From NCBI GenBank assembly GCA_016839765.1, contig JAEOTP010000043.1, positions 32,001 to 96,000 on the forward strand: 64,000 bases of DNA, read 5' to 3'. Below the pieces are notes generated by a model. The model had not been told where the DNA came from, made no database searches, and was given only the letters and a program-made list of their open reading frames with translations. Shown one piece after another: positions 1-4,494 of the stretch (within the stretch, counting starts at the first letter, position 1; the number at the start of each line of letters is the position of its first letter). This DNA comes from Promethearchaeota archaeon. GTDB taxonomy: Archaea > Asgardarchaeota > Lokiarchaeia > Sigyniarchaeales > SOKP01. The translations under genes were made by a program, and so were the position numbers.

Positions 1-230
1 TTTCTACTTCAATTCTTCCGATTCGTCCTGACTTTTGAAGATCTCTTAAATCGAGATCTAAAAGGAGACCCTCAGTTTAGCCGATTTAGCCGAAATGGCT
101 TTAAAATTTACCTTTGACCAAATATGGCGCCAACTATATCGCTTTTTTCAACCACTCCCTTAATTTCAAATTTTGTTTCAATAATATATTTTGTAGTAAA
201 ATCTACCTGATTATTTGTAATCTTGATCAC
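1..230 (-). CDS. dnaG: Archaeal DnaG-type primase / exosome-associated DnaG, 5' part (runs off the window), interrupted by a 37-nt insert at 77-113
   Basis: Manual translation: exon 1 (230-114) VIKITNNQVDFTTKYIIETKFEIKGVVEKSDIVGAIFGQ; exon 2 (76-1) TEGLLLDLDLRDLQKSGRIGRIEVE, the conserved archaeal DnaG N-terminus. Start is GTG at 230 or ATT at 221. Confidence 0.9.
77..113 (-). other. Candidate BHB-type (relaxed HBh') intron in dnaG mRNA
   Basis: 37-nt insert with in-frame TAA; its removal restores GQ-TEGLL. Exon GGUC pairs with intron GGCU, each followed by AA|A; intron-side helix GGU/AUC. Confidence 0.7.
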
Positions 231-802
231 TTCCGTATTACTTAATTAAAATTTATTTCTTTATTTTTATGAGATAATTATAATCTTAAATGATTTCAAA
301 CATTTTAAATTGAAAATATGATTTTTAGTTCAGTTTTTTTTGTGTATTTTAATTTTAAATGCTTTTAAGTCATCAATAAATAGATGATCAATTTAAATAA
401 ATAATTCTTTCCATTTATTTTTTGCTGAATAAAAAGGCAAACAAAATTGTTTGCAGCCATAACATCTCCATAGGATATTTATTTTTAAAGAAAATATTTA
501 ATAGATATTGATGAGTCTTTATTGGAATAATATGCTATTAAGAAGGTTTTCAAATTTAAATAAAAAGAAAATCAAATTCAAATTGAGTACTAATATAGGG
601 CGATTTTATTTTTACTTTGAAAAAGAAAATAATGAAAATTCTTCTGTTAATGGTAAAATCATATTTTTCCCTAAAGATGTCGAAATTACTCAACAGTTAT
701 AATATAATTTGAAATGATTAAAATTCAAATAATTATATTATTATAATAGAACTTAATTCTCTTCTATGTTTTAATTCATCTTAAGATTATCAAGTTAATA
801 CA

Positions 803-3243: not shown

Positions 3244-4494
3244 ATGCAAAATTGTAATATTATGAGTAGTAGTAAAGATCGAGTGGAAGCCCAACACTTT
3301 ATAAAGAATTTAAGTGGAAAAACCAAATTTGTTATATCAAAAAATTCACGTGCGATAGGACTCTCTAGACAAACATATCAAAACAAACTTGATAATTTGA
3401 GATACCAAAAAATAATTACCAATTTTACAATTAATATTAATCCAAATATTCGCCCAAATAATTTGAAATATGTAATGATTGAAATAAAAACTAACCCTAA
3501 AGAACCTGAATTAGTCGAAGAACTCTTAAAAATTCCGCAATTAAGAATGTTAGATGGAATATTTGGAGATTTTTCTCTGTTTGCATTATTTATTTTTAAA
3601 TCTCCCGAGGAATATTATCAGATATTGAATAACATTGATAAAACTATGTCAAAATCATATTTTAAGAAATATCAGATAATCGAAACTATTAAGGTGTTTA
3701 AAACAAATGGAATTAGCTTGAGAGACTCAAAAATCTCATTTACTCTTGGAAAAAAAATCAATTTAAAAGAAATTGCTAAAAATTCTGCGAATATCGAATA
3801 TAACCCACAGAAATTTCCGGGCGTTGTTATGAAGATAGAAGATCCAAATGCTACAATTTTGATTTTCTCAACTGGTAAAATAGTAGTAACTGAATTTAGA
3901 AAAGAAATAGGAGCTAAACAATTAATAGATAAAGTTGCCCAAGAGATAAGAAAAACAGGAATTCAACTAGAGAAGAAGATTAGTCAAAATTTTTATATTG
4001 ATGAGATAGATTACCTTATTTTAAAAATATTACAAGATGACCAAGGATTAAGACCAATTTCTACATATGAAATCAAAGATTTGCTAAATGAAAAGTATAG
4101 AATGACTTTAAAGTCTCTGAACAAAGACGATATTTCACAATCAACTATTCATAACAGAATTAAAAAACTCGAACAACAAGGTGCTATCTTAAATTATACA
4201 GTGAATTTTTGTCCAAAAAAAATAGGCTTTAAAGGCAAATATCTCCTTCGTATTAAACCAAAAGATCCATCAAAATATAATGAACTTGCTCTTAAACTGG
4301 ATATGCACAAAAATATTACTGATTTATTTCGAATAGGCGAACAATATGGATTATTTGCGATTGTTAGAGTGGAAAAAATTGAAGATTTTGCCTCTTTTAT
4401 CAAGGATCTATATAGTTCAGAAGAAATTGAAGATACATACACAAGCTTTGTTTTAGATGAGTTGAAACCTTATACTAATTTTATCCTTTTTTGA
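3244..4494 (+). CDS. Tandem Lrp/AsnC transcriptional regulator with an inserted single TBP repeat
   Basis: Two HTH+RAM modules (GLSRQTYQNKLDNL; ISQSTIHNRIKKLEQQGAI) flank a TBP-like segment EYNPQKFPGVVMKIEDPNATILIFSTGKIVVT. Confidence 0.85.
   Translation: MQNCNIMSSSKDRVEAQHFIKNLSGKTKFVISKNSRAIGLSRQTYQNKLDNLRYQKIITNFTININPNIRPNNLKYVMIEIKTNPKEPELVEELLKIPQLRMLDGIFGDFSLFALFIFKSPEEYYQILNNIDKTMSKSYFKKYQIIETIKVFKTNGISLRDSKISFTLGKKINLKEIAKNSANIEYNPQKFPGVVMKIEDPNATILIFSTGKIVVTEFRKEIGAKQLIDKVAQEIRKTGIQLEKKISQNFYIDEIDYLILKILQDDQGLRPISTYEIKDLLNEKYRMTLKSLNKDDISQSTIHNRIKKLEQQGAILNYTVNFCPKKIGFKGKYLLRIKPKDPSKYNELALKLDMHKNITDLFRIGEQYGLFAIVRVEKIEDFASFIKDLYSSEEIEDTYTSFVLDELKPYTNFILF

Follow-up and report, generated by a model that had tools for sequence, protein, structure and literature searches.

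A probable bulge-helix-bulge intron in the dnaG message of an Asgard archaeon

The dnaG gene of a Promethearchaeota archaeon is interrupted by 37 nucleotides close to its start, and the dnaG message very probably needs RNA splicing. The interruption is read here, with high confidence, as a pre-mRNA intron with a relaxed bulge-helix-bulge (BHB) motif of the HBh'/BHL type, excised by the splicing endonuclease EndA and joined by the ligase RtcB. An mRNA intron had been proposed in a first-pass annotation made from the DNA letters alone. That proposal is now supported by the fixed position of the insert among relatives, an exon-intron helix kept through double changes, purifying selection, a single gene copy, the presence of genes for EndA and RtcB, and one joined RNA contig. 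The window analysed is a stretch of 64,000 nucleotides, C17:32001-96000, of a 3.3-Mb, 96%-complete genome. Its host had been described as Asgard-like, in agreement with its nearest relatives, which are recorded mostly as Promethearchaeota.

On the minus strand, dnaG begins with a GTG at position 230 and runs for 39 codons ending in GAIFGQ, followed by the 37 additional nucleotides (Table 1). Removal of positions 77-113 gives a 395-aa open reading frame in which GAIFGQ/TEGLL is restored and which continues past the window edge to C17:31006. The two halves of the protein abut on the profile NF003108, where exon 1 occupies positions 1-26 and exon 2 starts at 27. The first-pass annotation had described this insert with its in-frame TAA, its exact removal to restore GAIFGQTEGLL, and flanks free of decay; the first two descriptions hold, and the third agrees with purifying selection on both exons. 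The 60x source contig, from DNA run X1, carries the insert across the junction with 0 differences, and the insert is also present in a 96%-identical contig from a separate study. A search of the 96%-complete genome found no second copy of dnaG.

Table 1. Features of the dnaG locus (window coordinates) and of related genes and inserts elsewhere in the genome.
Feature	Position	Strand	Basis or remark
dnaG exon 1 (GTG start to Gln39)	114..230	minus	NF003108 profile positions 1-26
Probable dnaG intron, 37 nt, phase 0, in-frame TAA at 110-108	77..113	minus	exact skip in RNA contig
dnaG exon 2, first part; continues outside the window to C17:31006, 356 codons	1..76	minus	open reading frame and profile
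Exon strand of central helix (GGUC), then bulge AA^A; predicted cut 114/113	116..119	minus	
Intron strand of central helix (GGCU), then AA^A; predicted cut 77/76	79..82	minus	
5' strand of intron-side helix h' (GGU; most relatives GAU), partner AUC at 85-83	110..112	minus	
Inner hairpin AGCC/GGCU, 5-nt loop ending WUC; 3' arm repeats the 3' splice-site sequence	88..100	minus	
Putative offset exon-exon pairing, exon-1 side: GCC of Ala35, UUU of Phe37; partner 73-68	120..128	minus	inferred
Putative offset exon-exon pairing, exon-2 side (GAG GGU)	68..73	minus	Gly42 third base constrained in intron-bearing genes
Upstream region present in joined RNA contig, possible 5' UTR	231..364	minus	contig end (364) is not evidence of a start site
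EndA catalytic subunit with L1/CSL loop	L192:1453-2058		second subunit on another contig (L193)
Mevalonate kinase BHB-type insert, 31 nt	L196:300-330		in 19/29 genus genomes, one compensatory change
RNase HII BHB-type insert, 30 nt	L197:298-327		in 7/30 genus genomes
Rag/Gtr1-like GTPase insert, 30 nt, perfect 4-bp helix	L198, about 917-946	minus	

Other kinds of intron were considered and set aside. A group I, group II or spliceosomal intron does not suit an insert of 37 nt whose skipped ends are not GT-AG and for which an Rfam search gave no match, and a GT-AG reading by way of GTAAAT near the 5' end of the insert does not restore the frame. A sigma-70 scan of the locus was also set aside, as not apt for archaea. 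The 3' splice-site sequence occurs twice in tandem (window 77-96); splicing at the first copy would keep 9 nt, including a stop, in the message, and the inner hairpin would hide this upstream copy.

The dnaG loci of relatives were gathered from genomes and metagenomes, and a spliced alignment of the N-terminus was made for 152 distinct loci. An insert follows Gln39 (site 1) in 52 of them and lies inside the Ile32 codon (site 2) in 7, and the remaining 93 have neither. The site-1 inserts comprise 41 distinct sequences of 29-43 nt, all of which carry an in-frame stop within five codons, including those with lengths divisible by three. Both exons display a strong excess of synonymous change, as do the insert-less genes. 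The conserved position, the stops and the synonymous excess together exclude artefact and decay. The checks suggested in the first-pass annotation lead to the same conclusion: an assembly error is countered by the insert's recurrence in the 60x contig, in the second study and in 52 distinct loci, a decayed gene beside an intact copy by the unsuccessful search for such a copy and the constraint on both exons, and the anticipated inserts at the same codon in relatives exist, with the central helix kept and double changes present.

The distribution of the site-1 insert is patchy. Loci with no more than 15 differences from the exons of this genome all bear an insert, and the six closest have it almost unchanged. 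Presence or absence on the DnaG tree requires at least 10 changes; the root of this tree is not fixed, so that gain is not separable from loss, and the patchiness itself means that many relatives do without the intron. It looks like a tolerated passenger, repeatedly gained and lost at an invariant motif, and not like a required switch.

The boundaries of the insert are consistent with four DNA-equivalent registers, only one of which, the one chosen in the first-pass annotation, gives a 4/4 central helix (GGUC:GGCU) together with the intron-side helix. This central 4-bp exon-intron helix is paired in 41/41 distinct site-1 inserts, with each boundary two bases beyond the 3' end of its strand, which upholds the earlier placement of both cuts after the second bulge base. 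The intron-side helix h', next to the 3-nt bulge, is paired in 92.7% of cells among the 41 inserts and the inner hairpin in 95.5%, with 5 double changes. All helices together are paired in 96.5% of cells, versus 17-53% when the partners are slid. The wobble base of Gly38 tracks its intron partner: in 45 loci GGYC stands opposite GGCT, and in 7 loci GGRC stands opposite GTCT or GTTC. A purine occupies this position in 67/100 genes without a site-1 insert. Within-family double changes all lie in one clade and thus count as about one or two events within this family; an independent-pairs test of covariation was underpowered, with 2 supported pairs only.

The strict hBHBh' motif is not formed at this junction. 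An exon-exon helix directly beside the 3' bulge is absent, since the first pair would be U-C, and the pairing is offset by two bases; because this helix does not adjoin the 3' bulge, the motif is of the relaxed form. An offset pairing of UUY:GAR and GCY:GGU beyond a 5-nt 3' loop is plausible in view of the third base of Gly42, the most constrained among the checked codons in insert-bearing genes (entropy 0.57 versus 1.95). The earlier designation of a relaxed HBh'/BHL form with a weak exon side is accordingly kept in its first part, and "weak" is better replaced by "offset". When the dnaG junctions alone are folded as naked RNA with nearest-neighbour energies, the BHB fold is the minimum-energy structure in 0/41 and lies a median of 7.6 kcal/mol above it (11.4 in this genome). 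RNAalifold, applied to the site-1 junctions, did not recover the BHB fold and preferred a competing one.

Evidence at the RNA level comes from the metatranscriptome run X20, in which one 340-nt contig with a depth of 3.2 skips exactly the 37 nt. Compared with the dnaG gene described here, the 91 nt of exon 2 in the joined contig show 0 differences, and the roughly 250 nt that comprise exon 1 and upstream sequence show 8 differences and 4 gaps. In insert-less loci, the number of differing positions is at least 12 of 92 for exon 2 and at least 18 of 117 for exon 1, and among the collected dnaG loci only insert-bearing ones are as close as the X20 contig. For this reason the simplest reading of this single contig, from RNA without matched DNA, is a spliced mRNA from the insert-bearing clade. 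Another X20 record (record 12), which reaches 8 nt into the insert, was set aside because it fits a precursor or an exon-1 end alike, as were the remaining X20 pieces, which belong to distant relatives. DNA run X1 also holds a joined dnaG contig, with a depth of 8.6 and an identity that is not listed. It probably represents an insert-less relative, given that such relatives are common and that the 60x contig of X1 itself reads through the junction with the insert in place. Two separate contigs of a de Bruijn assembly would not be expected to have 31-mers in common.

Inserts of the same type occur at other positions in dnaG and in other families. Those at the second site (Ile32 codon; L009, L029, L050, L105, L170, L181 and L183) are 30-37 nt long, in phase 2, with BHB-type ends, and have never been seen together with a site-1 insert. 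The same Gln boundary is also interrupted in families f9 (2/2) and f13 (3/3 examined), both outside the class of this genome, by inserts of 31-34 nt whose interiors are unrelated; their central helices are paired at 3/4 or 4/4, and one is a perfect GGTC:GACC. In family f17 (15/15 examined; L260-L266, L269-L275, L277), an insert of 28-31 nt is found 13 nt past site 1; the helices are 4/4 and the intron stems long. There are thus three dnaG sites within 35 nt, each in a different codon phase and all of one geometry, which is independent support that the geometry matters. The use of site 1 in three families may mean that it is ancient or that it is a hot spot. In a DnaG-profile survey of 251 genomes, the gene is split at profile positions 25-29 in 20 genomes among the best matches listed, and most other genomes among the matches listed have an intact dnaG. 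In L009 the 5' segment that bears the site-2 insert differs from its counterpart in L115 and L116, and exon 2 is nearly identical in all three, a pattern that points to recombinational transfer or to a chimeric assembly.

The genome encodes two EndA paralogues (C72 and C82) and RtcB (C25). The alpha subunit of EndA keeps the catalytic Tyr, His and Lys, and its KPR aligns with K44-P45-R46 of 3p1z, the best-matching structure, an Aeropyrum enzyme. The second paralogue is without the His, as a structural subunit would be. The L1/CSL loop confers broad specificity on EndA (PMC12397907), a broad-specificity loop has been reported for Asgard EndA enzymes (PMC5829648), and relaxed motifs are cut by this EndA type (PMC5829648, PMC12397907). 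The host feature of cbf5-type introns is therefore present, namely a hetero-oligomeric EndA with a broad-specificity loop, plus a ligase gene, and we infer that EndA cuts and RtcB joins the dnaG RNA. ARAGORN returned only 31 tRNA calls genome-wide (17 with introns, several dubious); this low count is consistent with multiply interrupted tRNA genes having been missed.

In the proposed mechanism, the last bases of exon 1 would form a 4-bp helix with the 3' end of the intron in the folded dnaG transcript. A 3-nt bulge and the intron-side helix would mark the 5' site, and a looser loop the 3' site. In each bulge a two-subunit EndA would cut behind the second base, and RtcB would join the exons to encode the 395-aa DnaG. 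The enzyme or the context would presumably select the BHB fold over its competitors, and the excised intron may be released as a circle. An unspliced message would yield a 40-residue peptide. Archaeal DnaG is best documented as an RNA-binding subunit of the exosome with an N-terminal RNA-binding domain (PMC4227792), so that a role of dnaG in replication need not be assumed; the intron seems to fall inside this domain. A regulatory link between the intron and the role of DnaG is possible and unsupported, and the coupling of DnaG expression to EndA activity put forward in the first-pass annotation is a conjecture.

Comparable inserts interrupt three more genes of this genome, with 31 nt in mevalonate kinase and 30 nt in both RNase HII and a Rag-like GTPase; every one of them has a 4/4 helix in one register (Table 1). 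These inserts suggest that mRNA splicing is routine in the gene expression of this organism. Every insert that was checked falls in an invariant motif no more than about 55 codons from the start, a place at which an imprecise loss would be costly. The dnaG, mevalonate kinase, RNase HII and Rag inserts have in common an inner hairpin whose loop reads C-RNWUC-G; the pattern was fixed after inspection of those inserts, and the loop motif occurs about once per 10 kb. It was not found, one partial match apart, in the introns of 14 tRNA-like regions of this genome. An ab initio genome scan for BHB motifs joining open frames recovered dnaG and gave no enrichment over frame-breaking decoys, and no genome-wide count of introns is therefore given. 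With the inner-loop motif added, the scan gave 5-6 hits versus 0-2 in decoys, three of them credible (dnaG, mevalonate kinase and the Rag-like GTPase); one hit, on C67, proved to be two neighbouring genes. The inner-loop motif combined with BHB, with no frame filter, was not enriched genome-wide (58/642 versus 6-8% in decoys). The frame of eS31 is broken between its zinc knuckles (L199, about 290-325), and the shared inner loop motif is seemingly absent from that insert.

Several other explanations have to be weighed. The insert might be removed from RNA by another enzyme, or with a helper that reads the inner hairpin, and not by EndA and RtcB alone. The preference for competing folds in both the energy calculations and RNAalifold speaks for this, as does a hairpin with a C-NNWUC-G loop, which is retained by the mevalonate kinase, RNase HII and Rag inserts and by the majority of those at dnaG sites 1 and 2 and which goes beyond known EndA recognition. 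Yet EndA geometry fits the boundaries of every distinct site-1 insert and all three dnaG sites, inserts of types B and C and of f9, f13 and f17 are without the loop motif, and the motif with BHB has no genome-wide enrichment; another enzyme or a helper is accordingly regarded as improbable. Excision at the DNA level, or segregating insert-less alleles that serve as template for the joined RNA, would account for the joined contig in DNA run X1, and the comparison of L009 with L115 and L116 indicates that close relatives can differ in intron content. The uniformly insert-bearing loci within 15 differences, the six nearest nearly unchanged, nevertheless make this very improbable; moreover, there are many insert-less relatives with an identity of about 83%, which fall inside the 80% setting used, the G-U pairs among the covarying ones suit a helix of RNA, and no recombinase or flanking repeats were seen near dnaG.

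Translational bypassing as in T4 gene 60, with the ribosome hopping over 37 nt of an unspliced message, finds some encouragement in a stop one codon past the junction and a hairpin-rich gap. It is scarcely credible when the take-off and landing codons are not matched (CAA or CAG versus TAA in most), the gap varies from 29 to 43 nt, inserts at other sites are in phases 1 and 2, and joined RNA exists. A pseudogene or an assembly artefact is suggested only by the broken state of the gene as annotated, in which a TTG at codon 90 would give a truncated 306-aa open reading frame, and has almost no chance of being correct against many independent assemblies, a single copy and the strong synonymous excess in both exons.

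Splicing of dnaG by EndA and RtcB would most closely resemble that of the cbf5 pre-mRNA intron of Desulfurococcales and Sulfolobales (Watanabe 2002, Yoshinari 2006; PMC2738675). In both, a short coding-sequence intron has a mostly relaxed BHB motif with cuts, predicted ones in dnaG, between the second and third bulge base, the EndA is hetero-oligomeric, the interior is variable, and presence is patchy, in cbf5 with secondary losses. Most cbf5 introns likewise relax the strict exon-side helix (PMC2738675). A 2020 paper described cbf5 as the sole such case besides a 5' UTR intron of Haloferax (PMC7714728). The latter, the BHB intron of Haloferax volcanii HVO_1309, is also an mRNA substrate of the tRNA splicing endonuclease, but it is untranslated, the reading frame is independent of it, and the EndA is of another type (PMC7714728). 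Non-canonical tRNA introns of Asgard archaea and Thermoproteales, as described in two reports (PMC11291895; bioRxiv 10.64898/2026.10.13.758758), share the motif, the enzyme and a similar size, and have been repeatedly gained in Asgard lineages, as the dnaG inserts seem to have been, although their hosts are tRNA genes; the passages searched in both reports make no mention of mRNA introns. In contrast to cbf5, dnaG is another gene in another phylum, with three sites in 35 nt, one of them used in three families with unrelated interiors, and its genome holds further interrupted genes. Splicing of cbf5 was shown by cDNA and enzyme assay, whereas that of dnaG is indicated by one RNA contig.

In eukaryotes, a short frame-shifting intron is removed from the HAC1/XBP1 mRNA by an endonuclease and a tRNA ligase. 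The nuclease there is Ire1, which acts on stem-loops under stress control; the dnaG case is without shown regulation. A literature search covering few subscription journals found no paper on mRNA introns in Asgard archaea or in dnaG. Within the literature searched, archaeal coding-sequence splicing was previously confined to cbf5, and dnaG would be the second gene family. It would add an Asgard case with three insertion sites and support at the RNA level, and its intron gain and loss can be traced on a shallow tree. On balance, though with clear reserve, a broader proposal is favoured: in several Asgard lineages, EndA and RtcB would splice the mRNAs of many conserved genes as a matter of routine, mini-introns would have been repeatedly gained at invariant motifs near gene starts, and the inner hairpin, shared by many inserts in this family, would mark a spreading family or a helper site. 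If true, a genome-scale, spliceosome-free mRNA intron system exists in the closest relatives of eukaryotes, and standard annotation truncates such genes, so that Asgard gene catalogues would hold falsely truncated core genes. Such a system bears on the origin of intron-containing protein genes before the spliceosome.

Elsewhere in the window, positions 3244-4494 encode a 416-aa Lrp/AsnC-like open reading frame with an apparent single TATA-binding-protein repeat in the middle of the protein.
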